Of a stretch of DNA of 64,000 bases, positions 2,667-45,161 are shown piece after piece. This DNA is from Naegleria gruberi (lineage: Eukaryota): the NCBI GenBank assembly GCA_000004985.1, contig GG738857.1; one strand, given 5' to 3'. The position numbers and the translations under genes were made by a program. A model generated the notes under the pieces. It had not been told where the DNA came from, searched no databases, and saw nothing but the letters and a program-made list of their open reading frames with translations. The first letter of the stretch is position 1. Every line of letters begins with the position of its first letter.

Positions 2667-3083
2667 TCCAAACCCAAACCCAAACCCAAACCCAAACCCA
2701 AACCCAAACCCAAACCCAAACCCAAACCCAAACCCAAACCCAAACCCAAACCCAAACCCAAACCCAAACCCAAACCCAAACCCAAACCCAAACCCAAACC
2801 CAAACCCTAACCCAAACCCAAACCCAAACCCAAACCCAAACCCAAACCCAAACCCAAACCCAAACCCAAACCCAACCCAAACCCAAACCCAAACCCAAAC
2901 CCAAACCCAAACCCAAACCCAAACCCAAACCCAAACCCAAACCCAAACCCAAACCCAAACCCAAACCCAAACCCAAACCCAAACCCAAACCCAAACCCAA
3001 ACCCAAACCCAAACCCAAACCCAAACCCAAACCCAAACCCAAACCCAACCCAAACCCAACCCAACCCAACCTAAACCCAACCA
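2667..3083. repeat. Second telomere-like (AAACCC)n tract, degenerating at its 3' edge (CCCTAACCC and CCCAACCC variants)
   Basis: Perfect hexamers start immediately after the gap. Variant units CTAACCC, AACCCAACC and CCTAAACCCAACC appear at 2808-3083 before unique sequence begins. Confidence 0.9.
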
Positions 3084-3801
3084 GATATTCCTAGTTATTG
3101 AGATATGCGAAGAAAACCTAACTTTTTTTTCATCGAGTACCTATTATCTCTAGAACCACTTTGAGTTTTTATTAGCATATAACAGTTTGTCGATAAAATT
3201 GTACCCTGATTAACATATATAAGATCCAAGTTTTGAATATTAGCCATTAATAAAATGGTAATGGGTTTTCGCCATACCCAAACCCAGACCCAACAATTTG
3301 ACTTTTATTCATCTTAATTCATTATCTCAATAAATACTCATTATAAATCAATATATTATATATCAATATACTCCAAATTGACTATATAATTATATAATAA
3401 CATAATATTTCATCGTTATAATAACTTATATAAGTTAATTTCATATAATAGATTAGACAATTAGAAAATCAATAAAAACATTTCAAAAACATTTCAAATC
3501 AATATATCACCTTATTAATCATGTTAATAACAATATATATCAATTTCAAATACTTTGGTATCATTTCAAGAAATTTACTATTCAACTTGTCAACTGACCT
3601 ATACTAACATTGAAGATAGAAATCTATACCACTTCAATTCACTTCCAATACATCTATATATGTTAATGAAATACAATAATATCAATTTGACATTCATCCA
3701 TATCATACATGGTACATGGCTGATCAACTTGATATCTACAGGGATGTAACTATGACATGTACTATACAGATCATCATGAAAATGATACAGTACCTTACTA
3801 A

Positions 3802-5543
3802 NNNNNNNNNNNNNNNNNNNNNNNNNNNNNNNNNNNNNNNNNNNNNNNNNNNNNNNNNNNNNNNNNNNNNNNNNNNNNNNNNNNNNNNNNNNNNNNNNNN
3901 NNNNNNNNNNNNNNNNNNNNNNNNNNNNNNNNNNNNNNNNNNNNNNNNNNNNNNNNNNNNNNNNNNNNNNNNNNNNNNNNNNNNNNNNNNNNNNNNNNNN
4001 NNNNNNNNNNNNNNNNNNNNNNNNNNNNNNNNNNNNNNNNNNNNNNNNNNNNNNNNNNNNNNNNNNNNNNNNNNNNNNNNNNNNNNNNNNNNNNNNNNNN
4101 NNNNNNNNNNNNNNNNNNNNNNNNNNNNNNNNNNNNNNNNNNNNNNNNNNNNNNNNNNNNNNNNNNNNNNNNNNNNNNNNNNNNNNNNNNNNNNNNNNNN
4201 NNNNNNNNNNNNNNNNNNNNNNNNNNNNNNNNNNNNNNNNNNNNNNNNNNNNNNNNNNNNNNNNNNNNNNNNNNNNNNNNNNNNNNNNNNNNNNNNNNNN
4301 NNNNNNNNNNNNNNNNNNNNNNNNNNNNNNNNNNNNNNNNNNNNNNNNNNNNNNNNNNNNNNNNNNNNNNNNNNNNNNNNNNNNNNNNNNNNNNNNNNNN
4401 NNNNNNNNNNNNNNNNNNNNNNNNNNNNNNNNNNNNNNNNNNNNNNNNNNNNNNNNNNNNNNNNNNNNNNNNNNNNNNNNNNNNNNNNNNNNNNNNNNNN
4501 NNNNNNNNNNNNNNNNNNNNNNNNNNNNNNNNNNNNNNNNNNNNNNNNNNNNNNNNNNNNNNNNNNNNNNNNNNNNNNNNNNNNNNNNNNNNNNNNNNNN
4601 NNNNNNNNNNNNNNNNNNNNNNNNNNNNNNNNNNNNNNNNNNNNNNNNNNNNNNNNNNNNNNNNNNNNNNNNNNNNNNNNNNNNNNNNNNNNNNNNNNNN
4701 NNNNNNNNNNNNNNNNNNNNNNNNNNNNNNNNNNNNNNNNNNNNNNNNNNNNNNNNNNNNNNNNNNNNNNNNNNNNNNNNNNNNNNNNNNNNNNNNNNNN
4801 NNNNNNNNNNNNNNNNNNNNNNNNNNNNNNNNNNNNNNNNNNNNNNNNNNNNNNNNNNNNNNNNNNNNNNNNNNNNNNNNNNNNNNNNNNNNNNNNNNNN
4901 NNNNNNNNNNNNNNNNNNNNNNNNNNNNNNNNNNNNNNNNNNNNNNNNNNNNNNNNNNNNNNNNNNNNNNNNNNNNNNNNNNNNNNNNNNNNNNNNNNNN
5001 NNNNNNNNNNNNNNNNNNNNNNNNNNNNNNNNNNNNNNNNNNNNNNNNNNNNNNNNNNNNNNNNNNNNNNNNNNNNNNNNNNNNNNNNNNNNNNNNNNNN
5101 NNNNNNNNNNNNNNNNNNNNNNNNNNNNNNNNNNNNNNNNNNNNNNNNNNNNNNNNNNNNNNNNNNNNNNNNNNNNNNNNNNNNNNNNNNNNNNNNNNNN
5201 NNNNNNNNNNNNNNNNNNNNNNNNNNNNNNNNNNNNNNNNNNNNNNNNNNNNNNNNNNNNNNNNNNNNNNNNNNNNNNNNNNNNNNNNNNNNNNNNNNNN
5301 NNNNNNNNNNNNNNNNNNNNNNNNNNNNNNNNNNNNNNNNNNNNNNNNNNNNNNNNNNNNNNNNNNNNNNNNNNNNNNNNNNNNNNNNNNNNNNNNNNNN
5401 NNNNNNNNNNNNNNNNNNNNNNNNNNNNNNNNNNNNNNNNNNNNNNNNNNNNNNNNNNNNNNNNNNNNNNNNNNNNNNNNNNNNNNNNNNNNNNNNNNNN
5501 NNNNNNNNNNNNNNNNNNNNNNNNNNNNNNNNNNNNNNNNNNN
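3802..5543. other. Assembly gap (N run)
   Basis: 1742 consecutive N. Confidence 1.
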
Positions 5544-17503: not shown

Positions 17504-20500
17504 TTACAATTTAAAGTTTCCTGTGTTTGTAAATAATTTTTGAATCATTAATTTTACAATAGCTGGTGGAAGAGTTGCCAAAAGAGAATAAAACCATGCC
17601 TGATACATTGTCTGATCAATAACAACATATAAAAATCCATTAATATCAAATCTACATCCAAATATATTCCTCATTCTTGTTTTCTCACTCCAAAATTGTA
17701 TATACTGGAAGGATTGCAATAATTTTGGAAGGGCTTGAGTCGTTGCCTTATCCTGTTCATGATTTTGAATTGCTCCTTGAATTTTAACTCTTTCCTCAAA
17801 CACTAAAATGCAATTTCTCCAACAAAAGTAATATAAAGTTGCTGCAGGGTCAACTACAAGGAATAATACAGCAATGTCTAATCCCAAGATGATGTACATT
17901 GGTTGAATGGTTTGGGCAGTGAATTCAATATTTGTAAAGAGGGAAATTAAGGATAAGACTACGGAACCTGCCTTTGTTAAGACGAAAGCAATCTATTGTA
18001 TTTGAATTAATATGAAAATTTGAATATTGAGCTAACTTACAATTAAATTATTCTTCAAATAAACCATTTTGGCATCGACAATCTTTTGAATATATTTCAT
18101 TCTCTTGTGCCAAACGATGGCAAAGTCCTTATCGAGTATGTAGCACTTATTTCTTGATAAATTAATCTTAATTTGAGTATTAGTATCATAAGAGATGGTA
18201 TCTGCATTATCATAGACTTTGAATTTCGTTTCTGTCTCTTCTAATAGTACAATAAATTCCTTTAGAGAGGCTGTAACTGATTGATTAATATCCATCCAAG
18301 TAGCTAATTCCAAAATAATTTTAGTCAATTGAGAAAAATCATAACTTACAAATTAATGGATAAAACATTAAAAATCCAAAAACGAAATTACAAGAAACAA
18401 TTAAGAAAGTATATGGATTGGTAATGGTTGGCATTCCTTTGAGTTGAAACCATGAGAAAATTTGAGGAATCAAGAAGAAGCCACAATAGTACAAGACAAT
18501 GTACATCATAAAATTCAATCCTGGTCTAATAGCTCTAATATATTTCAAGTATCTCTCATTTCTGTAAATGCTACTGAACTTGCTCTTCTTCACAAAGACA
18601 GTTCCGTTTGTAATTGGAGTGAACGAATATTCCTTATCATTGAAATTGTCTAAAAATTCTCTTGAATTCAAATATTCCACATAGGCTTCTCTGTTCTCAA
18701 ATGTTTTAACATTGACACGATCTGTGTTCTTTTCAATTAGAATTTCCTCGTGTGGGAAAATTCGATCATCCTTTGCTGTAACAATGATAAATTCATTCTT
18801 CTTTCTTTCCAATTCTTCGAATTGAGTTGAATTGAATTCTGGATCTTCATTGAGAGATGGAGTATTTTGTAGTGGTTGGTCAATGTCATTGTAAGCTACA
18901 TAATAACTATCAACATTGTGATCACCATTATCGAGGAGTTCAATTTCATTATCATCCTCCTTCTTGTTCTTTTCTCTCAGTTCAGCAAGTTCATATAATT
19001 TACCGAAAACTTTTCCTGCTTGTGAGGTGTCTCCTAATTGAGTGGATCGTTTGTCTCTTCTCTTATTCTTCAATTCTAGTAACTCAGTTTCATGTTTAAA
19101 GAAAGAATAGGTACAATTTGGCATTCCCTTGATTGTGGAATAGGCACTGTCAAAAATCAAATCAAACATCTTTCTAGTCCACTTGAAAATATGTAATCCA
19201 ACAAATTTCAAAAATGCAGACTTGTAAACAAAATAATAAGTGAAAATGAAAATAGCAAACATTGATGGAAGAAAAACAATTTCGACAGGATGAGAGTTTT
19301 GTCTAGTACTTGGTTGAGTTGACTCATAAATTGCAATTAAAACAGTTGGAACACCAGAAACACAAACCACAAACAAGAACAAGTTAAGACTCATCATTAA
19401 ATCAACTGGCCATGTCAGAATTGAACCTAAATACAAGATCCAGGATCTTCCTCTATCTCTAAATCGTTCTCCAAGTGATGGTTTTGAGAATAAATGTGAA
19501 GGATCGAATCTTTCATCTGTTGGATCATCACTTTTTACACTTTCTTCTCCTTGTTGATGATTTTCAATTATTCTATTATCAGAATTTCTACTTTTTTGAA
19601 CCATGTATTTGAAATCAAAATATGAAAGTAATAAAAAGAAACCAAACATGGCAAATGAAAGGGCAATTACCAAAACAGCAGTAATAATCATCAAATCATA
19701 ATTGAAACTTGTACTCGAGTGGTAGACACGAGCAGCTTCCTTAACAATTGAAACAACTGCAAACCAAGTCATGAATCTAATTCCACTAAACTCTGTTTGC
19801 TCATAGAAAATACTGTACAAGTAATGTAGATATTTAGGTACGTTTCCTGACATGTTTCTCTTCAATTTCAACGCCTTTTCCTCAATCTCTCTCTTATTCT
19901 TAATGGAAAAGTAATATTTTGGAATGAGATAGGTCGAGCATGTACAGATTGAAACACCAATGGCATATAGGAATGTCACCACGTTGAGAATGAAATCGTA
20001 CAATGGAACGTCATCTGGAATTTCAGTAACATAAAAGAAGGAGCAACTAATTGATACGATCATTCCAATACAAAGAAAAACCACTCTAAATTTGAGTCTG
20101 AATGATTTTGAAATCTTCTCTGCTGTTGTTGTGGTTGAAGTTGAGTTGAAGGCCTTATTGTGAATGAGCGTCTTTTTGTGTTCTTTCAATTCTCTCAATT
20201 GAATGGCAGTCTTTTTAGAGGCCTTTGATTGACCTCCTTGATCCAATATAGCTCCACATAATGGTAGGGTGACCAGAATAATAAATTGAATAGCTAGACC
20301 GAGAGAAATTGCATCGTTTCTACTCGAGTCAACAATTTGGCTCCAATACGTGCCACCAGTTTCCATTGGAGTCAACTGAACTCCAAATCTGAATAAGCAA
20401 GTCATTAGTAAGACAAATATCATCATGACAATGTAGAGAATATTTCTAGTGACAGCATCTAGGAATTTTCTTGAGAATTTCTCATTAGATTTTGAGTTAA

Positions 20501-21383
20501 CTAAACCTTTCTTTACAATAAAGTCAATATCCTTTTGAATTGCCAAATTTGATCTCAACAAATTATGATTATTCTGCAAATATTGATAAACTTCCAAACT
20601 ACAGTAAGAACCAATTGAAATGACAATCAAGGCACCAATAAGTAATGATATTTGCAATACCTGATCCAAACTAATCCAATCCTGAAGTGAAATAATCTTA
20701 TCGAAAGCAAACTTGAACGGATGTGAAGTCAAAGCAAATCCAATAATGATTCCAGGACTCGATTCAACTGTTTCACACATTTCTGCCAATAATTTATAAG
20801 CACACAACTCGTGAATGGCCAAAGCAACACCATACATGGCTCTAAACACATAAATTGTTTGTGAAACTTCTGAAAATTTTGTAAAATCAGACAAGGAAAA
20901 GTAAAATACCAAAATGCAAACATATTCCATCAAGACAGCCATTCCCAATCCAACCAGAGTTCCAAAATGCAACGTATAATGCACTCCTGTATAAATACTC
21001 TTTCTAATCAATGAATACCAAGCTAGCAAAATTAATCCAAACAGAAATGCAACTCCAAAAGTTACCAAATGTGCAATTCTCATTGAAAAATTGAAAATAT
21101 AATCAAAATGCTCCATTTCCTCTTGTGTTGAATTAATTCTCACAGTTACGTATTGTGAAGGATTAACAGCATCTAAAGCAAATAATGCAAAACTGAGTGA
21201 ACACCACAACATTCCTAAATTGTAAGATTTGTAAAGTGAATATTTGGATTGACCTTTCTTTTTGAAACTGTCCTTGTAGAGTTTGTATGGATCGGAGGGA
21301 ATTTCATCAGAATCTAATTTCAATTTTTTGGAGGGAGCCATCTTTTCGATGGTTTTTAATTCTTCAAATGACATTTTTGACAA
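17504..21383 (-). CDS. Large polytopic membrane protein, 3 exons (~1270 aa), function unknown
   Basis: The exons are 21383..18350, 18303..18041 and 17992..17504. The introns, 18304-18349 (46 bp) and 17993-18040 (48 bp), both start GTAAGT and end AG. They join the 1014-aa ORF in frame with the downstream ORFs 18032..18328 and 17504..17899. The product has more than 20 predicted hydrophobic helices. Confidence 0.7.
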
Positions 21384-24788: not shown

Positions 24789-25259
24789 TTATTCATTAGG
24801 TTGAATTTGTTGAGATTCTTGTGAGATTAGTCTAGTTTCCACACTCGTCACCTCTTCAATTCCCATACCACAAATAGTATTTACATAAAATTCCATATTC
24901 GATTCACAGCCAGTCATTAATATTTCCACAATTTTATCATTCTTCACCATAAATTCCACAATTTCTCCTTCATTATTCGAAACTTTCACGTAATGCCATT
25001 CCTCCTCCGAATATAAACTTTCAAATTTATAATTTTTCTTCTCCACAACCGGCACATACTGTGTTGTTTTTGCTAATTGAATTGTTTCATATGTATCTCC
25101 AGTGAAAATATCAACTCCGCATAAATATGCTTTTTTGGTTCCGTGTCTTCCTGTTTTTTGAAAAAAACAAGTCAATATTTTGCAAGGATTTCCATTGATG
25201 AGAAGATAACTTCCCTTTTTGATTTTATCTGATTCGATGGTGTGAGTGTAAGATTTCAT
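24789..25259 (-). CDS. Translation initiation factor eIF5A paralogue 1, with hypusine-site Lys replaced by Arg
   Basis: Over most of its length the DNA is near-identical to copy 2. It has the conserved eIF5A core, 'NGNPCKILTC..KTG(K/R)HGTKKAYLCGVDIFTGD'. Here the hypusination codon reads AGA (Arg), 'TGRHG', and there is a one-residue insertion 'FFQ'. I take the start as the internal Met 'MKSYTH'. The upstream in-frame Met at 25310 seems unlikely. Confidence 0.75.
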   Translation of the reverse strand: MKSYTHTIESDKIKKGSYLLINGNPCKILTCFFQKTGRHGTKKAYLCGVDIFTGDTYETIQLAKTTQYVPVVEKKNYKFESLYSEEEWHYVKVSNNEGEIVEFMVKNDKIVEILMTGCESNMEFYVNTICGMGIEEVTSVETRLISQESQQIQPNE

Positions 25260-25336
25260 TTTTTTTTGATTGTTTTTTTGTAAATTGCAAATTGAAAATT
25301 GCATCAACAAGTGTTATCAAGTAACAATGAATTCAT

Positions 25337-25522: not shown

Positions 25523-25990
25523 TTATTCATTTGTTTGAATTTGTTGAGCTTCTTGTGAGATTAGTCTAGTTTCCACACTCGTCACCTCTTCAATTCCCAT
25601 ACCACAAATAGTATTTACATAAAATTCCATATTCGATTCACAGCCAGTCATTAATATTTCCACAATTTTATCATTCTTCACCATAAATTCCACAATTTCT
25701 CCTTCATTATTCGAAACTTTCACGTAATGCCATTCCTCCTCCGAATATAAACTTTCAAATTTATAATTTTTCTTCTCCACAATCGGCACATACTGTGTTG
25801 TTTTTGCAAATTGAATTGTTTCATATGAATCTCCGGTGAAAATATCAACTCCACATAAATAAGCTTTTTTGGTTCCGTGTTTTCCTGTTTTTTGTAAACA
25901 AGTCAATATTTTGCAAGGATTTCCATTGATGAGAAGATAACTTCCCTTTTTGATTTTATCTGTTTCGATGGAGTGAGTGTAAGATTTCAT
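25523..25990 (-). CDS. Translation initiation factor eIF5A (155 aa), canonical
   Basis: Full eIF5A signature including the hypusine loop 'KTGKHGTKKA' (AAA Lys codon) and the C-terminal OB-fold region. Single exon. Confidence 0.9.
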   Translation of the reverse strand: MKSYTHSIETDKIKKGSYLLINGNPCKILTCLQKTGKHGTKKAYLCGVDIFTGDSYETIQFAKTTQYVPIVEKKNYKFESLYSEEEWHYVKVSNNEGEIVEFMVKNDKIVEILMTGCESNMEFYVNTICGMGIEEVTSVETRLISQEAQQIQTNE

Positions 25991-26208: not shown

Positions 26209-29200
26209 ATGTCTCTCCAAATCAAAGCCCTCACACGCTCACTGCATGTTCTGATGATGTTATGTTTGATAATGATGATCATTGTGATGGAGGGCAATTT
26301 TATTTCCTCCGAATTATTACTGAACAATGATAAATTTCGAATACGTGATGATCACGAAAATGTACTAAATTATATGAGGAGGAAAGCCTTGAGTAGTTGG
26401 GAAAATGATGATCAAATGATGATGGAAAATTCAAATCAAATATTGTTGAATGATTCCGATGCCAGTGGTGTTGTTATTAGTAATAACAGCAGCACTATTC
26501 CAAATATATTTTATTTAAATACTAATATTCCGACCATTAATAATGCATCATCTTTAAATTGTAATAATATTTCGAATCCTTGTACGAAAGGATCACAAAT
26601 TTTAAATTATTTCTATGAAAATTTAGTTTACAAGACGGATAGTATTGATGTTTATGTGATTGGCAATTTGACAGATTGTTTTGATGGGACTGACAGATCG
26701 AATTCCTCCACAAGTAATTTATTAACAATGCGGCTGATAGGTCAAGATCCTAATCAATATTCCTATATGAATTGCAACATGAGATTATTATTTACAAATG
26801 TCTATTTTCATTACTTTAACCTTTACAAATATGATGTGAAAAATTTGAATACAGTAGGATTTGTGAATTGTAACATTAATTCAGTGAATGGAGATGAAAA
26901 AATTGAAACTGGAAAGTTAGTAATACGAAACTCAATTTCTAGGAACTCTAATTTTGAGACTACTAGTGTAGTGGATATTGACAAATTTGTCATGATTGAA
27001 AGTGATTTGAAAGTTTTCTTTCATGATCTGTATTTTTGGAAATCAAGATTTCTGACAGTTAATACTCTTAATAATTCTTTATTTGTGGATAGTTCAATAG
27101 AGTTGAATAGATTGTCAATGGTAGCAGTTGAAAATAGCAGATTCGAGAGATCTCAATTAACTGCTGTTTACCTATCCGCTTTGGAAATCAATAATTGTAC
27201 AGTATACGAAACTGTGAGATGGCTACGATTGAAAGGAACTATTCTCTTATCTCTAGAGAACAGTGTCATTAGTGAGAGTCCATACGACTCATCGAGTAAG
27301 GGAATTATAGAATCAATATTATCGAGCTATATTCACATTAACCAGTGTAAATTTCTTTCCAATAACAATATAGCAGTTTATGTGGACGAAACTGGTTTCT
27401 TCCATACGAGAAAATCGTTATTTAGTAATAATTTGGGGGCTGTATATATTGGAGAAATAGTTAACTTGGGAGATGTATTAACTGGAGTCCATATTATATC
27501 ATCCACATTTTCAAGAAACTTTGGAGTAAATGGTGGTGCCATAACTCTTCCCAACACAACTAGTGAAATATTTCGTTGTGAATTTTATGCAAATATTGCT
27601 CAAGCAGGAGGTGCAATTTTTTCCACTTCTGGTGAATTGAACATACTCAACAGCATCTTTGAAGAAAATCATGCTTTTTATTCTCCTTCATGTCCCACTC
27701 CATTTTGTGGAAGAGGAGGAGCCATCTATGCTCAAAACCCAATTCTTTTAAATATTGACTCTAAAAACACTTTCCGTAGAAACTATGCAAGAGATGGAGG
27801 CGCAATTTATGTTGATATTTATGATGACAATGAATTCTGGAAATCATGGATTTTAGTACTGAACTGTTTAGAAAACTCTGCAACCTTTTATGGAGATTGT
27901 TTTTATTCGAAACAAGATATGAAAGAACATGATTTTCTAAAAATTTTAAAGAACTCTCCAAATGCATTAGGTTCTTCTAAATTAACAATTGTGGACGTCA
28001 AACCAAGCTCCCTTGAAGTATATCCAGGTCAGAAAGCATCCATAGCTTTGACTATTATGGATGGGTTCAATAATACTTTACAAAAGCTGCAAACACAACC
28101 AGTAATAGCGAGCTCAGATCCTGGAGTAGCATTTCAGACATTTTTTGAAAATACCACATTCACCATCTCTCTACAAGTTACTAATCACAATACCACCTCA
28201 GCTGTGGCTTCATTTTATGTTGGAGAAGCAAATGTTAACATTACTGTCAAAATCATACCATGCCCAGATGGCTATTCATTAGTTAATTATTCTGCATCAG
28301 AAACAAGCAAGAGATTGTGCCTCAAAAATCCTGATCCACCACTCCATATCATTTTACCAGCTATTTTTTCAAGTATAATATTGTTCATTGTTGGAATCTT
28401 GTTGGGAATTTTAATAATATATCTAGGTTGGAATATTAATGAAAAGTTGAAACGTCTCAAGAAAAAGGAGAAGGCTGAAAAGAACTTGGCTCAGCGTCTT
28501 GTTGATAAGCAAGTTATCTTTTCAGAAAACAATGAGTTGAATCCATCAACAGATCTAAAGACGTCACTATTGGGAAGCTATTATGCCAACAGTCAAGGAT
28601 CCTCTTCATCTGGAAAGAATAGAAAAATTAAGGAGAAAATTAGGATGCAAGCAGAGCAAAACTATTTAATTCCAATAGAAAATATTGATATTGTTCGAAA
28701 AATTGCTGAAGGAGCAAATGGCATCGTATACCTCGGGAAATGGCTTGGCACTGAAGTTGCTATGAAGAGCTTGAAATTGGAATATGTTACGGAAGAGGAG
28801 AATGAGGAATTTGAAAAGGAGGCAGCATTATTGAAATCCCTTAAACACCCAAATATTGTCACCAGTTTTGGCGTTTGTATGAGTGGAAATATTAAATACA
28901 TGATTGTGGAATACATGCCAAGAGGAAGCTTGGACAGGGCAATTTATCAATCTAGAACTGGAGCTCAAATACTCAAATTGAAACAAAAAGTGAATATCCT
29001 TCTTGGAGTTGCAAACGGTATGAACTATTTACACTCTCTTAAACCATATAGTATCATACATAGAGATTTGAAACCTGGAAACATTTTGCTTGATCATAAT
29101 TTATCAAGTAAGGTAACAGATTTTGGACTCTCCAAAATTATAGGAGGAAATTCTACCAACACAATGACTACAGCACTGGGAACTTTATTTTACATGAGGT

Positions 29201-29658
29201 GAGTTGTTTAATTTAACTTTGGTTATAAGAATAACAATAGTCCTGAGATTCTAGGTGCAGACAGTCCAAGTGAATTCTCAACCAAGCTCGATGTCTATAG
29301 TTTTGCAATCATCATGTACGAGCTGATGTTTGAAGAATCTCCTTATTTAAATCACAAATCGCAAAAGATTTACAGATTCATCACACCCAATACTAACACT
29401 GAAAATCCTTTCAATATTCCAACTAAAGTGGTAAAGGGATTGAGACCTACCATTCCATTTTCATCCCTAGAAGAGCAGTATATTTGGATAGAGGAATTTG
29501 TTCTTCCTAGAGAACCAGAGATGGATGTTCAAATTGTTTCGAACGTATTTTCATTATTTATCGATTTGATGATTGAATGTTGGAGTGGAAAAGCTCAAGA
29601 AAGGCCAGATTTTGGAGAAATTTCCGAAAGATTAGGTGAAATGTTGAGAACATTATAG
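26209..29658 (+). CDS. Receptor-like Ser/Thr protein kinase: signal peptide, PMP/β-helix-repeat ectodomain, TM helix and kinase domain (2 exons)
   Basis: Exon 1 is 26209..29198 and exon 2 is 29241..29658. The 42-bp intron, 29199-29240, runs GTGAGT...AG and splits the kinase 'SPE' (APE) motif. Splicing restores '...GTLFYMSPEILGADSPSEFSTKLDVYSF'. The ectodomain has repeated 'GGAI(Y/F)' motifs (PMP-type right-handed β-helix repeats). The TM helix is 'ILPAIFSSIILFIVGILLGILIIYLGW'. The kinase motifs are GxGxxG-like 'IAEGANGIVY', 'VAMKSLK', 'HRDLKPGNILLD' and 'DFGLS'. Confidence 0.8.
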
Positions 29659-33003: not shown

Positions 33004-34422
33004 ATGTCATCACATCAACTGCCACACATCATCTCACTGTTCTCGATTATAATCCTCATCATATCTTCAATCCACTGCGAACAATTCGTCTTGGGTGGCT
33101 CATTCACCATGAAATCCAGAACATCAGACTCATCTGTCACCAATCACTTTATTAAAAATCTTGCACTGTACAATACAAAAAACAATGAACTGTCAGCATT
33201 TTATAATATCCCACCTGATGGCCCCATTAACGTAATTTATTATGAACCTCGTTGTGATATGATGTTTATCGGAGGAAAATTCACAACCATTGATGGAGTG
33301 AAAAGTGGACCCATTGCTGTGAAATTATTGGCGAGTAGTGGAGGAAACACAACTCAAAATCAGTGGCAATCGTTGGGTGTATTTGATAGAGATATATGTA
33401 TGGGGGAATGGTCGGATGGAGCTGAGATTATGGATATTGAATTGTACTTTTCAAATTTTGTAAAAAGTTGTCAACCAAGTATTGTAATGGTTGGTAAATT
33501 TACAAAGGCAGCTGGTATTAGAAATTTGAATAATATTGTCATGTTGGATACGAAGAGTTTGAAATGGGAAGTGTATGCTGGAGGAAATAATTTGAATGGA
33601 TCTTCGTTTAATGGAATTAGGGCAAATTCATTGAGAGCTGCTCTGTATCATGATGATTCGTATTTGTACGTTGGAGGTGATTTTGATGGATATTTCAAAA
33701 GATATAAGGATCAGAAATGGGAAACTCTTCTTCAGGGACAATTGGATGGTCCAGTAACTACCATTTCAATTCAGAATAATCATATTTATGAGGATATCAT
33801 TGTTGTGGGAGGTCAATTCACAGTTCCTAAGCAGTACATGTTTCTATTCAAGCCATCGAAGAGTGTTAATTATGTGAGACATTTTAAAAAACCAACCAAA
33901 TTGATTGCACCATCAGTTGAATTCCTAACTGCCAATCAGACAAGTAGGAGAGGTGTGAAACAACTTGTGGTGAGTGGAGATCAATTGTTTGCAGGTGGTG
34001 CTTTTTCACATGAATCTGCAACCAATGGAATTTACAATAATTATCTGAGTTTAACTATTGAGGGATATGTAGCAGCCTCTTCTGAAACTTTGAACACTGT
34101 CTTTGAGAATAGTACAGTGTCGTCAATGGGCAAGTGTAAACCTCCATATAGATCTTGTAAGAGAGGATCTGTGGCTATCATCAAGAGGGATTTTATTTAT
34201 TATCCTGAAGAGAAGGGATATTATTATGATCCAGATCTGACATTATGCATTCATAGATCAGTGAATGATATTGACCAATTTAAACTTGCTATTGAAGGTG
34301 AGGAAGATACTGTGAATGATGTCATGTTCTTACCTTATGCTGCATCGAATTGGATTCAATCATCCTTACTGCTAACAGTTTTTTGTTTAATGAATGCATT
34401 GACATTTATTTATACTATATAA
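33004..34422 (+). CDS. Secreted, probably GPI-anchored Kelch-like β-propeller protein (472 aa)
   Basis: N-terminal signal peptide 'MSSHQLPHIISLFSIIILIISSIHC'. Recurrent 'GGxF' blade motifs: 'FIGGKFTTIDG', 'YVGGDFDGYF', 'VVGGQFTV', 'FAGGAFSH'. The C-terminus is a short hydrophobic tail ending at the stop, a GPI-signal-like arrangement. Confidence 0.55.
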   Translation: MSSHQLPHIISLFSIIILIISSIHCEQFVLGGSFTMKSRTSDSSVTNHFIKNLALYNTKNNELSAFYNIPPDGPINVIYYEPRCDMMFIGGKFTTIDGVKSGPIAVKLLASSGGNTTQNQWQSLGVFDRDICMGEWSDGAEIMDIELYFSNFVKSCQPSIVMVGKFTKAAGIRNLNNIVMLDTKSLKWEVYAGGNNLNGSSFNGIRANSLRAALYHDDSYLYVGGDFDGYFKRYKDQKWETLLQGQLDGPVTTISIQNNHIYEDIIVVGGQFTVPKQYMFLFKPSKSVNYVRHFKKPTKLIAPSVEFLTANQTSRRGVKQLVVSGDQLFAGGAFSHESATNGIYNNYLSLTIEGYVAASSETLNTVFENSTVSSMGKCKPPYRSCKRGSVAIIKRDFIYYPEEKGYYYDPDLTLCIHRSVNDIDQFKLAIEGEEDTVNDVMFLPYAASNWIQSSLLLTVFCLMNALTFIYTI

Positions 34423-37400
34423 ACAACATTGGCTTCTTCCAATAATTGTTGTTGAAGAGTGTGAGCCTTATTGAATACTGTATATTCAGAGGTAAAGACA
34501 AATCTAGAGAAGGTATCACCAAGATTGATGAGAATTTGTCGATTCAAGTTTTCAAATGTTTCCTTCACAACCTTTTCTTCAATTTCTATAACTGGAACAG
34601 GAGCATTCTTTGTGGCAACCTTGATATCTTGATCAACAGCTTCAATATCCACAGAGAATAATTCATAAGATTCATTCTTTTTGATAATGCTCTTGTAGAG
34701 GAAGAGGAATGCATTTCTACATTTGGATGGAATATTGACTTCTGTTGGTGCATTCGTCTTGATATAATTGTTATAAATATACTTGGAGAACTTTGGAAGC
34801 CTTTCCAAGTCATTACTATCCAAGAATGATTTGTTTGTTTTGATATCAGTAAAAAGATAAATATTCTCCAATGAGAACTCCTTTTCACAGAAAACTTCAA
34901 AGAGTCCATAACCTTCCTCATTATCCAAAACGACGCTCATATCCTTGTTGATAATTTCATCATTGGATGATTGTCTATTTTCTGGCTCGCTAGCTCTTTC
35001 CGTGTTTCTGACCTTTCCTTTGATCTTGTAGTTTGCCAATACCAACAGAGCATAACCACCAAATGTTAACATGTAGGTGAACACGTACAAAACTTCAAAG
35101 ATGAATGAAACCATATCTGTAACGAGGGCTTTTTGGAACATTTCTTCAGATTGGAATCTGAATGATAAACTACTAAGACCAAGTACTTGATTGAAGAAGA
35201 GGAAAATAAAGCACAAAATGTAGAGCATCATTTCCATTCTGAAATAAAGAGGACCGTCCAATGAAATAAACCATGTATAGAGTTTCTTGAATGGATTTGT
35301 GTAATTTTTCTTAAAGTTAATGGTATTAACATCAAACTCAGATGTTGGCTCCTTACGTTTGCTTGATGCTCTTGCTACTCTTTCCTTTTCTTGTTTATGA
35401 GATCCTACAAAGTCAAATATGGTAACCAGAATAATCATTACACTAAATACAAATACTGTGGTTGTGTAGGAAATAGAAACAATGTAGGTGTAAGCTGCTG
35501 AGCTAATGGCTCCAGTTCTAACTAGGATGACCCATAATGTCCAATAGAGCAAATTGATGCCAGCAAAAACGCAAACAATGGTTACAAATAAAGCAGTAGA
35601 GGTGGTGTAACGAAGCATTTTGAATATTCTTTCGCTCTTCTTTTCGTCTCCTCTTGTCTTGGCAATTAATTGATACAAATATTTCATAAATTGGAATCTG
35701 AATACTTGTAATACATATGAAAGAATAGCCGTCAAATTGAGTGTGTTGACAAGAATAGCAACAATATTAGCAATCACATTAGCAGCTGTATCACCAGCTT
35801 CCCACATTTGAGAATTACCAGAGTAGAGTTGAGATACTAGAACACTTCTTTGGATGATATAAACCAAAACACTTTCAATGATCAAAGCAATCATACCCAA
35901 GTATGGAGTTCCCAAACGAGAGGAAATTGGTTGCTCCTTTCTAAAGATAATTAATAATGTTAGGATGATAGTAGACATTACAAAGTAAAAGATACCGAAT
36001 GCAATTTGAGCACTATACAATCCAGTTACTACCTGCTTAACAATTGGTGTCATCTCTATTGTTTTTTGTTCCAAGAATGTGGAGAACATTGTGGTGTGAG
36101 TACAGGCACAATCAATCATTTGAGTAGCAGGATTATAGCCCACCAATGTACATCCGTCTGTGCTCCAAGCTCCACTACGTTCGTCATAATATCTACATGC
36201 AAAGGTTGATGTATTGGAAGAATAATTGGAAACAGTAGACAAATCCAAGTTCAATTTGAAGGAGAGAATGATTGGAGTTGTCAAGTTAGCCAATGGTAAA
36301 ACGCTTCCCTCTTGTAAGAACTTGAAGTCATTAGCAATAGATGTGGAAGGAGTACTTTCAGTAAAGTTATTGGAGAATGGAAGATTTTGATAGGAAATTA
36401 AAGATGTACCAGCACTCTTTGAGAAACCATCATATTTGGCCAAGATACTGGATATGTCCATTCCAATAGAACTGTCTCCTGATGAGAGAGTTTGATTGCC
36501 TGATGTTGGTCCACTCAATTTGAAGCTAGAAATTGTAATATTGATGAGAGGAGTACTGATTGTTACGGCAGGAAGTTCAGAGGATGATGAGTCCAATACT
36601 GTTGGAACTTGAGAGAGTAAGACAAGTGCGGCCATCTTACTGGTAACCTCTGTCGTTTTATCAGCACCAACACCAGATTGCAGTAAGTTGCCTGAAATTT
36701 CAATTGCTGATTTAACATCATCTTGTGAAATTTTGGATCTAACGTATCCGTACTGCTCAATTTCCTTCTTGTATAAATCTGTAAGAGAATCAGCGAAACT
36801 ACTCATCTTGGTTGTTACTTGGTCAACTACCTTGTCATTAACCGAGTCAGAGGAAGAAGTTAAGGCTTGGAAACTTGACAAAGCAGTAGCAGGATTAGTT
36901 GGATCTATCTTAATGTTTTGGACAATTTGTGAAACCAAATCAGCGTTACCACCACTTCCAGAGGAAGCAACCAAATACGATTGATCGTATGAGGCCACTG
37001 TTACAGCCACTCCTGTTAATTCACCAATTCTAGATGATAATTGAGAAGATGTTCCATTAAATGCAGTTACATTTACAGAAAGAGTCTCAAGTAAATCACT
37101 ATTTCCAAGAGAATCTTTTACATAAACAAGTAATCCAAGAGATCCCACTGTTACTTTCTTGTCTGTACTAATATACGGCAAGTAGGTAGAAATTGTCAGA
37201 TTTGCAGAATACTCAGTCAATCTAATTTGTTTCAAAGAGGTTGGATCAGTAAACCCGATAGCATATTGCAAAGGTTGTAATTGCTCAGCTGCAGCCCACT
37301 GATTAAAGGTAATTGTGAAATAATCAGTGAGTGCATATCCTGATGTTCTATCCAAAGTTACCAAATCACCTTCTGGGGCAGAAGCAGCAGAAATAATTGG

Positions 37401-39891
37401 GATAGTTACAGAACCAGTCATATTCTTGTTAGCAGAATTGAAAATTGCTAAAGAAATAACAACATAAGAACTGCCTGAAATATAGTTGGTTGTACTCAAT
37501 GTAATTGCTGGGGTAAACAATAAGGAATTACCTTGACGTGTATAACCAGTAATAAGACCAGTTGATTTGAAAATATTAGTGAGAGTACTCTTGACCATCA
37601 TTGATACACTCCAAGAGAAAGTCAAGGAAGAAGAACAATTTCCTTCACATCCCAAGAATGATTGAACAATTGATTGATTCAATGCCACTTTAGAAACAAC
37701 AGCCTCAATAGCTTTTCCAGCAGCAAGTTGTTTTCCTACATAAACTGAAGGCAAACCAAAAATGTCCAATGAAGGAACATTTACATCAACAACCGGTACT
37801 ACCAAGACAGTCATATTAAATTTGACAGTGTTGGATACACGACTAGCAAAACCTTTTGGATTAGTATAGAAAACATTAGCCGAGAAAATGTACAAAGCAG
37901 GAGCCTTGAGTTCTGATGGATTAACCATAAGTATTCTATCATTAGTTTGGTTAAATGGAGTTGAAGTGTTTGTATTACCTTGGCAATTTTCACAAATCCA
38001 TTGGTAAACCAGATTGGAGCTGGCGAGAGAGGAAAATTCGTCTGATATTATTTCCAATGAAACAGAAGTAACATTTTGATAGTAAACTCCTGATGATTTT
38101 TTCAAAGAAATAACTAATGGATTGAGGTTGACGCTACAATCGGTAGAAGAGTATCCAGATTGACAGCTACATTCGTTATAAGAAATACAAGTACCCTTAG
38201 ATGAACAAACGTTGCTGGAATTAGATGAAACTGAGTTGCAAGTAGTGAGCTCGCATTTAGTTCCGAAATAGTTTGCATTACATGAACAGATATCATTACC
38301 AGTACATGTTCCCTTTCCATTACAAACAGAGGTGTTGTTAGAATTGATACCAAAACATTTTGTTACTGAACAAGATGGTCCAAACCAATTAGCTGTACAA
38401 TTACAGGTATTGTAGTCCAAACATTTACCATTTCCAGAACAGACTGTGGAGTTCAAATAATTGATTCCATAACAATTGAATTGTGAACATGTGGATCCGT
38501 AATAATTCTTTGAACAATTACAGTTGTTTGGAGAAACACATGAGCCCAATCCGCTACAAACATTGGATGAATTGAATTGAATATCATGGCAAGAGTAACT
38601 TTCACAGTTTGATCCATTGAAACCTGATTTACAGCTACAAATATTTGGCGCAATACAGGAACCATTGCTTGAACAAGCCAAAGAGGAATTAAAGTTGTAT
38701 CCAAAACATGAGAAGCTTTCACAATTAGATCCAGAATATCTTGAGGTACAGTTACATTTGTTTGGTTGAGTGCACGAGCCTCTTCCAGAACAAACATTCT
38801 TATCAGAATAGACGACTGAGTTACAATAATAAGTACCACAGTTTGATCCAGAGTATCCTGCAATGCAAGAACAATTATTTGGTGAAATACAACTTCCTTT
38901 TCCAGAACAAGCTAATGGATCAGAATAATCAAAACCAGAACATTGGTAAGTTTGACAATTGGTGCCATTATATCCAGAGAAACAAGTACAGTTGTTTGGA
39001 GAAGAACATACTCCAAAACCAGAACAAACTGAGGAACTATTCTTTGAAATATTAGAACAATTGTAATTTTCGCATTGTTGTCCATAGTATCCTGAATTAC
39101 ATGAGCAAATATCAGCTCCATTGCATTTACCATTACCAGAACAGACCTTAGAATCATTTGATAACAATCCATAGCATTGGAATTTTTCACAATTATTTCC
39201 ACCATATCCTGCAATGCAAGAACAATTATTTGGTGAAATACAACTTCCTTTTCCAGAACAAACTAATGGATCAGAATAATCAAAACCAGAACATTGATAA
39301 GTTTGACAATTGGTGCCATTGTATCCAGAGAAACAAGTGCAGTTGTTTGGAGAAGAACATACTCCAAAACCAGAACAAACTGAGGAACTATTCTTTGAAA
39401 TATTAGAACAATTGAAATTTTCGCATTGTTGTCCATAGTATCCTGAATTACATGAGCAAATCTCAGCACCATTGCATTTACCATTACCAGAACAAACCTT
39501 AGAATCGTTTGATAACAAACCAAAACATTGGAATTTGTCACAATCATCACCACCATATCCTACAATGCAAGAACAATTATTTGGTGAAACACAGCTTCCT
39601 TTTTCAGAACAAACTCCTGAATTGTTATAGAGTTTTCCATTACAATCATAATTTTCACACATGTTACCATAATAACCTGATTTACATGTGCAAACATTTG
39701 ATGAGGAGCAAACACCATTTCCAGAACATACACCAGTATTATTGTTGAACGTTCCATAACAGTAATAAGTCTGACAACTTTCTCCAGAGTATCCATTTTG
39801 ACAGGAACAATTATTTGGTTTAACACAAGCTCCCTTTCCTGAACATACAGATGAATCATTGTAATAAACGTTGTAACAATTATAATCAGAA
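34410..39891 (-). CDS. Adhesion-type GPCR with C-terminal RGS domain: EGF-like repeat ectodomain, GAIN/GPS, 7TM and RGS. Probably the 3' part of one gene together with 39560..41041.
   Basis: The 1750-aa ORF (34410..39662) stays open in the same frame up to the gap at 39892, and EGF-like repeats continue there ('...CSGKGACVKPNNCSCQNGYSGESCQTYYCYG...'). From N- to C-terminus: more than 20 six-cysteine EGF-like units; a GPS site 'CRYYDERSGAWSTDGCTLVGYNPATQMIDCACTHTTMFSTF' (C-x-C-x-H-T/T-x-F); seven hydrophobic helices; and an RGS box with 'EFSLENIYLF' and 'APTEVNIPSKCRNAFLF'. No signal peptide exists if the protein starts at Met 39662. Confidence 0.8.
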
Positions 39892-40042
39892 NNNNNNNNN
39901 NNNNNNNNNNNNNNNNNNNNNNNNNNNNNNNNNNNNNNNNNNNNNNNNNNNNNNNNNNNNNNNNNNNNNNNNNNNNNNNNNNNNNNNNNNNNNNNNNNNN
40001 NNNNNNNNNNNNNNNNNNNNNNNNNNNNNNNNNNNNNNNNNN
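39892..40042. other. Assembly gap (N run) inside the lectin-EGF-GPCR gene
   Basis: 151 N. Confidence 1.
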
Positions 40043-41041
40043 TGTTATTACAATAATAAGTTCACAGTTAGTTCCGTAGTATCCATTGACACAAGTGCAT
40101 ATATTAGGATTGTAACAAGTTCCATGACCTGAGCAAACATATGAAGTGTTAGTATTTGTAATTCCATTACAAGTCCAATATTCACACAAGGATCCAACAT
40201 AATTGGTGTTGCAAGTACAAGTATTTGGACCACTACAAGTACCTCTACCACTACAAACATTATAACTACCAGCAAGAGTACCGCCACATACGAATGTTTG
40301 ACAATTAGCATTGCCATATCCACTGTTACAATTACAACTATTTGGTGAAGTACAGGTACCATGACCTGAACATACTGCGTCACTGGTTGCATTTACATTA
40401 AAACAAACTGGTGTCTGACAAGTAGAGCCAACATATCCATAATTAGGAGCACTTCCATCAGAATAATCAGTACTCCAACAAACATATCCATCAGAACCAT
40501 ACAAGACTAAATCTCCATTATTTTGAAGAACTAAAGCAAAAGGAGCAGTACCTCCAGTACAAGCTTCTGACAATGTCTTTACAACGTTACCATTGCCATA
40601 AATTGCCAAAGTACCGTTAGTTTCTAATTTCAATTGATATGGAGCTGTTCCCTTCTTATAGGTTCCACTCATCCAACTGGCATAATTGCTGCCAGCACTA
40701 TTATCAAACAATACCAAGTTTCCTGAGGTTTGCATCTGTAAATAGTATTGTCCAAAATAGAGCGAGGAAAAGGTTGCTCCTGCAGTCATGATATTATTCT
40801 GATTTGAAATTAAAGCAGTGGATGTTGTAATATCCAAGCAAGTACATTCATCATCGCCTGTACATAAACCATGTCCAGAACATACACCACTAGTTCCAAT
40901 CTGTGTTGATTCTACTCCTGTACATGTATGTTGAGCATGGCTGGAATGGCTCATACAAATTCCTACAATGATTAGGATAATAAGGTATATACAACTAGTG
41001 CTAGAAAGACGTAACCTAGGGGTTGCTTTCCTATTTGTCAT
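40043..41041 (-). CDS. Signal peptide + bulb-type (B-lectin) mannose-binding lectin domain + EGF-like repeats. Probable 5' part of the adhesion-GPCR/RGS gene.
   Basis: Start Met at 41041 with signal peptide 'MTNRKATPRLRLSSTSCIYLIILIIVGICMSHSSHA'. The B-lectin domain reads 'QNNIMTAGATFSSLYFGQYYLQMQTSGNLVLFDNSAGSNYASWMS...LETNGTLAIYGNGN...LQNNGDLVLYGSDGYVCWST'. EGF-like repeats of the same type as the downstream gene follow and run into the gap. The ORF-track continuation past the gap (39560..39891 in this frame) is out of frame and not real. Confidence 0.7.
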
Positions 41042-43020: not shown

Positions 43021-43374
43021 ACATTATTTAATTATTCAAGAAGTTCGGAACAAATCCAGTTCTAATTTCCATGAATATTACCTTTCGAAAAGTGGTGAAG
43101 AATTCTTCTATTCCATGACTACAAAATGTATTCTATTTAATTATTAATTCATTTTGTGTTTACTTGTTCAGATAAAGAGAGCGTGCTTTCCACTTGTGAT
43201 TTTAATGCTTTTGAAGAGAAAAATTCTCGTTTAATATTCATCTGGCCATTAAGAAGGTTTAAAATACAATTTTGGAAGTCAACCGTCTACGTGATGACAT
43301 GTTTGTAATGTCAAATGGTGAATTACCTTCTCACAAGAGAGAAAGAAAAAAAACAAACGAAACCCTTCAAAATA

Positions 43375-45161
43375 ATGTTGCCTTTCTTACTGTTTCTCTG
43401 TTTGCTTGTGGCAGTTTCGCTTTGGCTCTTGTATTTCAAGTTTTACAAACCATATCTTGATTGTCAAGTATTGCTGGAAGATATTCAAAGTGCAGCAGAT
43501 GAGAAAGTTGAAAGAATTGGAGATACAGCAATAATCCTAGGAGGATCCTTTGCTGGACTGACAAGTGCCATTGTACTGTCAAAATATTACAGAAGGGTAA
43601 TTATTGTGGATCGAACTGTGATGGAGCCACTTGAAACTGTGGCCAAAGCCAGACAGGGAGAACAAGCTCATGCTATTTCATATCGTTCATTATTGGTGTG
43701 GGATCGATTATTGCCAGGATTTTGGTCCGAGTTGGTAGAAATGACAAAAGCTAATCGACTTTCACAATTAATGTTTCCTGCCACCGAAGTCAAATATTTC
43801 TACAGGGAAGGTTATAATTTGAGTGGACATTTTGATTTGAGAAGTAGATCGATTATTACTGCCAGTAGAGGACAGATGGAAACTGCACTCAGAGAAAGGA
43901 TTAGAAAAGATTTGAAGAATATTGAGATATTCGATGGATACAATGTTTCCTCTAATGGAATCAATATTGAAAGAGTACAAGAGAGCAACAATGGAGAGAA
44001 GGTTGTACGTGTCAAATCAGTGACCATTGCAAAGTGTTCACAAGAAAATGATCCAGCAGATCGATTGATAATTGATTGTGATTTGTTTGTCAATTGTGCT
44101 GGTGTAGGATCCAATGTTTTGATGAAAAACATTGAAAATGAAGTTTCACCTCATAAGAAACTATTAACCAAATCTAAGGTAGAAGTCAAGATTAGATATC
44201 AAACTGTTTATTTTGAACCTAAGGATACTTCATACGATAGTGAAGGAAAGGTCGTTCTCTGTCGTGAAGATAGACAAGTGAATGAGAATAGAAAGATTAA
44301 TGATCCATACTATATGATTTATCACTTGTTGACCTACCCAAATACAAAGGGAATGCTCATAATGCCATTCACTGACAATACCATGTTGCTCCTCTTACAC
44401 AATTACAATGAGAAAATTGAGTCATTGACTCCAGAACGTGCAAAGGAGCAAATTTTAGAATTTTGTAAAGATTTCCCAGATATGGAGAAGGACACTTCAC
44501 ATGTATTGGATCTACTCAAAGATGAACCAAAGAGAATAGCTCCAATCTATGAAAAGAATGGCAGCGAATACGTACACTATGAAAATTTAAAGAATGTCAA
44601 AGGATTTATTGCACTCGGTGATGCTGTTGGTAAGTTGTGTGTGGAAAATATTCAATTTAATCCTTTTGCATTCAAACATTAGCTTCTCTCAATCCTATTT
44701 ATGGCCAGGGAATTACCTTGTCTGTAGATTCGGCAGTATTTTTGGATAGCATGATCAAGAAGGAGCTCGAAACATCCAATAAGGCAGTATTTAATGCCAA
44801 GTTTTGTAACAAGTTTCAATTGGCTCTTTCCAAGACCTATTTAGTTCCTTGGATTTTGGGGTCTAGCTCCGATTTGAGATTTGACTTTTCTAAATATTCA
44901 AAGAACCTCTACTTACAAAAATTGGTTGCTCCACTATTGGCTTGGCTCACTGATAGATTATTCATTTCAAGTCACTACTCTGCAGTATCGAGTTATTACT
45001 TTCAAACTGTCTTGATTATGGATGATGGTTTCAGAAAGCAATTGTTAAATCTTCGTTGGTTGCTTGGCTATGTTTTCTGGAGAGAGCTCAAAATGGCCAT
45101 GTGGTGCCTTGCTATCGCCGCTTTGTGTACCTTGGCTGTTGTTGGTGTGGAAAATTATTAA
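43375..45161 (+). CDS. Membrane-anchored FAD-dependent monooxygenase (squalene-epoxidase-like), 2 exons
   Basis: Exon 1 is 43375(or 43315)..44629 and exon 2 is 44683..45161. The 53-bp intron, 44630-44682, runs GTAAGT...TAG. Splicing creates the flavin-monooxygenase fingerprint 'GDAVASLNPIYGQGITL' (GDAxxxxxPxxGQGxN). The N-terminal TM helix and the Rossmann motif 'AIILGGSFAGLTSAIVLSKYYRRVIIVDR' are followed by a C-terminal hydrophobic segment 'MAMWCLAIAALCTLAVVGV'. Confidence 0.7.

Follow-up and report, generated by a model that had tools for sequence, protein, structure and literature searches.

Two annotated genes of Naegleria gruberi probably form one receptor-like kinase gene with a polymorphic membrane protein-type ectodomain and a predicted 42-nt intron

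We analyzed a 64,000-nt stretch of the Naegleria gruberi genome (assembly GCA_000004985.1, contig GG738857.1; hereafter, the window), which has an overall GC content of 31%. Positions 26209..29658 on its plus strand very probably (we put the probability at roughly 0.85) constitute a single two-exon gene, encoding an 1135-amino-acid (aa) type I receptor-like Ser/Thr kinase of the tyrosine kinase-like (TKL) type with a β-helix ectodomain of the polymorphic membrane protein (PMP) type. The reference annotation holds two adjacent models at this position, a truncated kinase (NAEGRDRAFT_65139) and a 114-aa orphan (NAEGRDRAFT_65140). On the sequence, these are parts of one gene, which was split because a predicted 42-nt intron was overlooked in the annotation.

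The open reading frame (ORF) at 26209..29202 (997 aa) was 100% identical to EFC46676.1/XP_002679420.1, the product of NAEGRDRAFT_65139, which is described as a “predicted protein” and is located on a 573-kb scaffold. The ORF at 29314..29658 (114 aa) exactly matched the separate model EFC46677.1/XP_002679421.1 (NAEGRDRAFT_65140). The first ORF is closed by the TGA at 29200-29202, which corresponds to bases 2-4 of a GTGAGT donor; an earlier note on this DNA had claimed that this stop arises only inside an intron, and its coordinates proved to be exact. When 29199..29240 (sequence GTGAGTTGTTTAATTTAACTTTGGTTATAAGAATAACAATAG) was removed, a 3408-nt ORF was obtained that encodes 1135 aa, reads ...GTLFYMSPEILGADSPSEFSTKLDVYSFAIIMYEL..., and ends at the TAG at 29658. 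The spliced reading across the junction (marked by a slash) is ...ALGTLFYM/SPEILGADSPSEFSTKLDVYSFAIIMYELMFEESPY...; in other words, “...FYMSPEIL...” runs on into the 29314..29658 ORF, as had been proposed. Exon 1 (26209..29198, plus strand) is a continuous ORF identical to XP_002679420.1 and covers aa 1-996 and 2 nt of codon 997; it contains the signal peptide, the ectodomain, the transmembrane (TM) helix, the juxtamembrane segment, and kinase subdomains I-VIII as far as ...GTLFYM. Exon 2 (29241..29658, plus strand) supplies the last nucleotide of codon 997, encodes aa 998-1135, and ends with the stop; it contains the APE motif and the C-lobe, and its last 114 codons are those annotated apart as XP_002679421.1. 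A collection of about 15 billion proteins did not contain the spliced 1135-aa protein.

The segment 29199..29240 (plus strand, 42 nt, phase 2, GTGAGT...AATAG), which contains the in-frame TGA, is predicted to be a spliceosomal intron and is very likely genuine. Its GT..AG ends are canonical, its removal brings back the conserved reading frame, and its GC content is 24% vs. 35-36% in the flanking exons. The intron was called because five independent homology or sequence lines point to it. First, 24 codons separate the acceptor from the ATG of the 114-aa ORF; they are in the same frame and encode kinase subdomains VIII-IX (SPEILG...DVYSFAII), and the start of the 114-aa ORF itself falls mid-subdomain IX. 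Second, when PDB sequences were searched with phmmer, Arabidopsis CTR1 (E-value 2e-38) aligned without a gap over the junction (GTLFYMSPEIL vs. GTPEWMAPEVL), and the alignment continued past it (DVYSFAIIMYEL vs. DVYSFGVILWEL). Third, a full-length N. gruberi paralog, XP_002675069.1, aligned gap-free through the junction (GTVLYMAPEVI...DVYSFAIIMYELFFEEAPF...CWTQNPSERPTF), and both exons are open and conserved with this paralog through subdomain XI. Fourth, the junction peptide LGTLFYMSPEILG is identical in the homolog from Naegleria fowleri, where it lies in uninterrupted genomic DNA (contig L002). Fifth, the score against the Pkinase profile (PF00069) rose from 125.3 bits for the unspliced sequence (profile positions 3-164 of 263) to 173.9 bits when the 42 nt were removed (3-256 of 263), a gain of 48.6 bits. 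The homology evidence thus argues strongly for a 42-bp intron through the APE motif of one gene, as the earlier note had suggested.

If the annotation were correct and no splicing occurred, the locus would encode a truncated, catalytically dead kinase-like receptor ending in ...FYMR at the TGA together with an independent 114-aa protein, or would represent a decaying pseudogene. GenBank and RefSeq do hold two separate models, the length of the intron is divisible by 3, hence retention would merely truncate the protein, and the N. fowleri homolog, which has a frameshift and an in-frame TAA, seems damaged. However, the in-frame subdomain VIII-IX codons ahead of an ORF that begins within subdomain IX, the open and conserved state of both exons, the increase in the Pkinase score, and the canonical ends and low GC content of the intron all argue against this reading, which we consider highly improbable. 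The preferred two-exon structure was also compared with other splice choices. The frame-preserving alternative acceptors 29264, 29270, and 29300 gave Pkinase scores of 158.6, 152.0, and 134.2 bits, respectively, all below 173.9 bits; these acceptors and that at 29375 were ruled out by their lower kinase scores and by the loss of APE and subdomain IX residues.

For Naegleria, introns of 126-203 bp on average have been reported, and N. fowleri reads were mapped with a minimum intron length of 30 bp in the same study (PMC8296547). Introns as short as the one predicted here are not exceptional in the window: a search for GTRWGT...AG segments whose removal would rescue long ORFs returned two further short candidates, of 53 nt and 46 nt, and GTRAGTT-type donors are common to both of these and the 42-nt intron. 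The 53-nt candidate (44630..44682, GTAAGTT...TAG) lies within 43315..45160 (plus strand); its splicing would extend a 455-aa ORF to 597 aa, and a GD..P..GQG motif of the FAD-monooxygenase type would be regained (ALGDAV/ASLNPIYGQGI). The 46-nt candidate (18304..18349, minus strand, GTAAGTT...TTAG) is located at the 3' end of a 1014-aa multi-TM ORF (18339..21383), and its removal would give +89 codons; no homology support was obtained for it.

A Kyte-Doolittle scan of the spliced protein showed hydrophobic peaks at aa 7-33 and aa 710-744, with the kinase domain C-terminal to the second, which predicts the layout of a type I single-pass receptor-like kinase. The first peak forms the hydrophobic core of a predicted signal peptide (26209..26292, plus strand, about aa 1-28, with a putative cleavage site), and the second, with a hydropathy maximum of 3.08, corresponds to a single TM helix (28336..28440, plus strand, aa ~710-744). 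The helix is followed by a charged juxtamembrane segment (28441..28530, plus strand; LKRLKKKEKAEKNLAQRLVDKQVIFSE), which is conserved in an alignment of the three-member family described below, with E754, A756, E757, K758, L760, L764, D766, K767, I770, and F771 as invariant columns. The TKL-like protein kinase domain (28687..29658, plus strand, aa 827-1135) is interrupted by the intron. After splicing, it scored 182.8 bits against PK_Tyr_Ser-Thr (PF07714), and its Pkinase match was above the cutoff (31.7 bits) across the whole catalytic domain. The catalytic motifs are all present, namely VAMK850, HRDLKPGN951 (Ser/Thr-type, RD), DFG971, SPE997, DVYSF1014, CW1110, and RPDF1118. One TM helix and, after splicing, a complete Ser/Thr kinase had been anticipated in the earlier note, and the hydropathy peak and the motifs bear this out.

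The best relatives of the kinase domain among PDB sequences were CTR1, B-Raf/Raf-1, MAP3K12/DLK, Pto, and SYMRK, nearly all of which are TKL kinases. When a full-length database was searched, the top matches to the kinase part were plant receptor-like kinases (RLKs) and an Entamoeba kinase (P0004, 37% identity). By best match, the kinase can be classified as TKL-like. The C-lobe contains a family-specific insert of ~40 aa before subdomain XI (…EEQYIWIEEFVLPREPEMD…, EE..IWIEEF...), which we regard as coding because its sequence is conserved in both the paralog and the N. fowleri homolog. A second intron within this insert (e.g., an in-frame GTATAT...CCTAG segment of 33 nt) was rejected on the same grounds, as IWIEEF... 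is conserved at the protein level in both homologs. Contamination or a bacterial origin of the locus was excluded by the intron, the 573-kb eukaryotic scaffold, and the eukaryotic TKL kinase.

The ectodomain is ~685 aa in length. Its PMP-type β-helix coils (27334..27852, plus strand) comprise four canonical units of the form FxxN...GGA[IV], at aa 434-458, 459-483, 484-521 (with a Cys-containing insert), and 522-548 (lengths of 25, 25, 38, and 27 aa, respectively), and two degenerate coils just upstream (aa 376-414; FLSNN..AVY and LFSNN.GAVY). The four canonical coils are position-conserved in the paralog and the N. fowleri homolog. GGA[IVL] occurs four times, each time preceded by FxxN, against an expectation of 0.015, and none of 20,000 shuffles of the ectodomain reached four. 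Against TIGR01376 (POMP_repeat, NCBIfam, cutoff 15), the protein scored 21.4, the paralog 20.5, and the N. fowleri homolog 17.8; against Pfam PF02415 (Chlam_PMP), the paralog scored 20.7 and the N. fowleri homolog 28.6 bits. With β-helix profile thresholds set beforehand as a test, the window protein itself stood above the cutoff for TIGR01376 and exactly at it, with nil margin, for PF02415. The description of the ectodomain as a PMP-type β-helix therefore holds in part: the motifs are real and far above chance, but the canonical ones are confined to aa 434-548 and do not extend over all of the ~700 aa for which they had been claimed.

An exhaustive phmmer search with the ectodomain against 1.84 billion representative proteins gave 450 matches at E<1e-3. 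The non-Naegleria matches that were inspected were multi-repeat PMP proteins (e.g., P0056), with E-values down to 2e-21; the PMP matches cover positions ~340-540 of the ectodomain query (protein aa ~370-570), typically at 30-40% identity. In a search with a profile built from the three Naegleria ectodomains, PF02415 and/or PF13229 (Beta_helix) was found in nearly all of the 120 matches listed; among these were adhesin-like proteins of Methanobrevibacter, “predicted outer membrane repeat proteins”, one protein from a sponge, and one from a eukaryotic transcriptome. Repeats of the FxxN/GGA type form the β-helix coils of chlamydial Pmps (PMC11166332, PMC10715098), and an AlphaFold model of the PMP-coil part matched solely right-handed parallel β-helices. 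The PMP repeats of the Naegleria protein are thus predicted by the model to form right-handed parallel β-helix coils. Single-sequence AlphaFold prediction of the ectodomain was unusable (predicted local distance difference test score [pLDDT] of 29).

It could be argued that the ectodomain is a generic glycan-cleaving enzyme of the pectin-lyase fold, or an unrelated β-solenoid, and that its match to PMP is a compositional coincidence of low-complexity sequence. Four FxxN...GGA[IV] units at fixed spacing stand against an expectation of 0.001, however, and a second independent model, TIGR01376, is above its cutoff in all three homologs. Furthermore, the sequence matches inspected in the 1.8-billion-protein library were PF02415 proteins; identity was about 36-39% over a stretch of ~100 aa, with E-values as low as that given above, and no catalytic-site pattern was identified in the ectodomain. 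We therefore regard this alternative as very unlikely and retain a PMP-type β-helix for the coil region. Outside the coils, aa ~115-375 contain conserved Cys residues, an N-cap-like PC..l.qAL.y helix, and NS-rich strand patterns, and may plausibly continue the β-helix. Between the coils and the membrane, a β-rich module with a Cys-pair stalk (27976..28332, plus strand, aa ~590-708) is conserved in the three Naegleria proteins; its motifs are PGQ..S..f.i.D.fGN and, in the stalk, C685-P-x-G...C704. No Pfam family matched this module, and the confidence of the AlphaFold2 (AF2) model was low to moderate there. Taken together, the extracellular part is predicted to contain a right-handed β-helix, built at least partly of PMP-type coils, followed by a β-rich module and a disulfide stalk. 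No Pfam match to a PMP middle domain or an autotransporter β-barrel was found, and the C-terminus is instead occupied by the TM helix and the kinase. Because the middle domain and β-barrel are unmatched, the protein is not a full-length member of the chlamydial Pmp family, and only the repeat type is common to the two.

The combination of a PMP ectodomain, a TM helix, and a eukaryotic kinase was observed in only 3 of the 318 proteins retrieved in all searches, all of them from Naegleria: the product of the window gene, its N. gruberi paralog, and the N. fowleri homolog CAG4708412.1 (together with metagenome and Logan twins). The paralog (XP_002675069.1, NAEGRDRAFT_69813, 1095 aa, P0062) was found by the exhaustive ectodomain search and is co-linear with the window protein from the N-terminal cap to the final kinase subdomain. 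Pairwise identity among the three members is 29-35%. No PMP ectodomain was found in the other eukaryotic kinases matched in the full-length database search, and literature searches for Naegleria together with PMP, or for Naegleria receptor kinases, returned nothing relevant. The architecture had been called unusual, and among the sequences retrieved it is: in the sources searched, this ectodomain type has not been linked before to a eukaryotic kinase. The family is nevertheless a lineage-restricted variant of protist receptor-like kinases and is not categorically new.

The N. fowleri homolog is located at 894..4470 of contig L002 (an N. fowleri-type contig) and also at 6001..8964 of contig L001; L002 552..752 probably holds a 5' signal-peptide exon. 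One of its introns interrupts the Gly-rich loop (L002 3352..3426) and another follows ANILL (from L002 3803, ~130 nt); the N. gruberi sequence is continuous at both places. Since the N. fowleri introns lie elsewhere and the junction of the 42-nt intron is uninterrupted there, intron positions differ between the homologs. The N. fowleri gene has a 1-nt frameshift directly after HPSIV (L002 ~3570), which is also present in an ENA assembly and reflected in CAG4708412.1, and an in-frame TAA at L002 4303-4305, directly after IWISE; it may be a pseudogene.

Several points weigh against the reading of the locus as a single, functional kinase receptor with a PMP-type ectodomain. We infer splicing from homology, and the junction 38-mer was not found in a scan of metagenome contigs, as expected. 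The first Gly of the Gly-rich loop is replaced by Ala (AEGANG), the sole deviation among the kinase signatures; the homologs have GEGANG or GEGSNG. The frameshift and stop in N. fowleri may mean that the family is dispensable. As for the ectodomain, the PF02415 score is marginal (20.6 bits at a gathering cutoff of 20.6), and the canonical motifs occupy about 115 of the ~685 residues, such that a β-helix outside the PMP coils is inferred. Outside aa ~300-545, the AF2 model cannot be relied on (mean pLDDT of 53); the alignment behind it consisted of PMP proteins, which biases the model toward the PMP fold, and Foldseek with this alignment-based model returned nothing from the PDB at E<=0.001.

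The upstream neighbors of the gene are two tandem eIF5A-like genes, a CRT-like transporter gene, and a gene for a large multi-TM protein; downstream are a convergent gene for a 262-aa protein, 40 bp away, and a gene for an LRR_6 protein. The nearest genes of the surface type begin about 3.3 kb away; the first encodes a Rax2-like protein, secreted or anchored, and the next a 1750-aa receptor with EGF repeats, multiple TM segments, and an RGS domain. No cluster of related genes was present around the locus within the window. The surroundings of the gene thus do not support its placement, in the earlier note, beside other rapidly evolving surface genes. In the eIF5A-like pair (24789..25310 and 25523..25990, both on the minus strand), the GxHG core of the hypusine site is kept (TGKHG and TGRHG) and the C-terminal half is divergent; the one member scanned matched Pfam IF5A-like_N at 3.7e-17. 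The very large surface receptor is encoded at 34410..39662 (minus strand) and on into 39560..41041 (minus strand); its teneurin-type EGF repeats number in the dozens, and it also has a membrane region of several passes and an RGS domain at the C-terminus. An assembly gap interrupts an ORF upstream of it, which has EGF and bulb-lectin-like sequence and is probably part of this gene. Assembly gaps (N runs) are found at ~1100..2700, ~3800..5500, and ~40000..40200, and a coding-looking (PN)n/(TQ)n dipeptide microsatellite (~2750..3100) adjoins the first of these.

The layout of the Naegleria protein resembles that of the transmembrane kinases (TMKs) of Entamoeba histolytica (EhTMK family, e.g., PATMK and EhTMKB1-9; PMC2211552, PMC2880585), which are likewise type I proteins of an amoeboid protist with an ectodomain, one TM helix, and a TKL-like Ser/Thr kinase, and the Entamoeba kinase P0004 was among the best kinase-domain matches. 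However, the ectodomains of the Entamoeba TMKs are Cys-rich (CXXC/Gal-lectin-like) and have no homology to the Naegleria PMP β-helix, and the host lineages differ (Amoebozoa vs. Heterolobosea). The Pmp-like proteins of trichomonads, which are also eukaryotes, have FxxN and GGA[I/L/V] repeats followed by a single C-terminal TM segment, as in Naegleria, but end in a short cytoplasmic tail with endocytic motifs and have no kinase (PMC6701047). In chlamydial Pmps, the repeats are far more numerous and are accompanied by a middle domain and an autotransporter β-barrel; the Naegleria proteins contain just four canonical coils. Plant RLK/Pelle kinases (LRR-RLK, CRK) follow the same receptor-kinase logic with unrelated ectodomains. 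In sequence, the Naegleria kinase is closest to CTR1, Pto, SYMRK, and many plant RLKs, being an RD kinase with CW...RP.F in subdomain XI, but the ~40-aa C-lobe insert sets it apart from plant RLK and Raf-like TKL kinases.

Two metagenomic proteins combine PMP repeats with other signaling domains. In P0281, which is probably eukaryotic, a PMP/Beta_helix ectodomain is joined to a class-C G-protein-coupled receptor domain (7tm_3), that is, to seven-TM signaling and not to a kinase; from this fusion, PMP β-helices also appear to serve as ectodomains of seven-TM receptors. In the bacterial-looking P0052, an N-terminal Hanks kinase precedes C-terminal PMP repeats; the domain order is reversed, and the kinase is of the bacterial type. 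The idea that the membrane-proximal module and Cys stalk are common to eukaryotic PMP receptors found no support, as pairwise BLASTP was not significant, with E-values of 0.014 for P0281, in a non-corresponding region, and 6.3 for P0066, a multi-TM protein.

By analogy with these systems, the protein is most likely a surface receptor that would couple recognition of surfaces or glycans outside the amoeba to Ser/Thr phosphorylation inside it. Surface proteins built on β-helices, of the PMP and other types, act as adhesins or glycan binders, and single-pass TKL receptor kinases signal through clustering on ligand binding and phosphorylation of the activation loop. In the proposed mechanism, the β-helix face would bind a ligand or surface outside the cell, with a glycan or the surface of a cell or of prey as the most plausible target, and binding would lead to receptor clustering or dimerization. 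The RD-type kinase domains may then trans-phosphorylate their Ser/Thr-rich activation loops, and the signal may pass to the cytoskeleton or the phagocytic machinery, as in the Entamoeba TMKs, of which PATMK takes part in phagocytosis (PMC2211552). A more far-reaching scenario is that a bacterial-adhesin-type PMP β-helix, possibly acquired horizontally, was wired directly to a TKL kinase to give a lineage-specific adhesion or pattern-recognition receptor for bacterial prey or cell surfaces that triggers phagocytic or motility signaling; the rapid divergence between N. gruberi and N. fowleri (~30% identity) and the apparent decay in N. fowleri would then reflect an arms-race-like turnover of receptors. 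We regard this scenario as speculative and unlikely as it stands.

At the level of the reference genome, the finding is a correction, in which RefSeq XP_002679420.1 and XP_002679421.1 would be merged into one gene, and it points to introns of about 40-55 nt that have been overlooked in the N. gruberi annotation, with the 53-nt candidate at 44630..44682 as a second case in the same window. It also defines a small, Naegleria-restricted family of receptor kinases with a PMP β-helix-type ectodomain, a type known previously in eukaryotes from trichomonad adhesin-like proteins without a signaling domain. If the ectodomain does bind prey or host surfaces, members of this family would be candidate recognition receptors in the genus of the brain-eating N. 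fowleri, although the N. fowleri copy appears defective.

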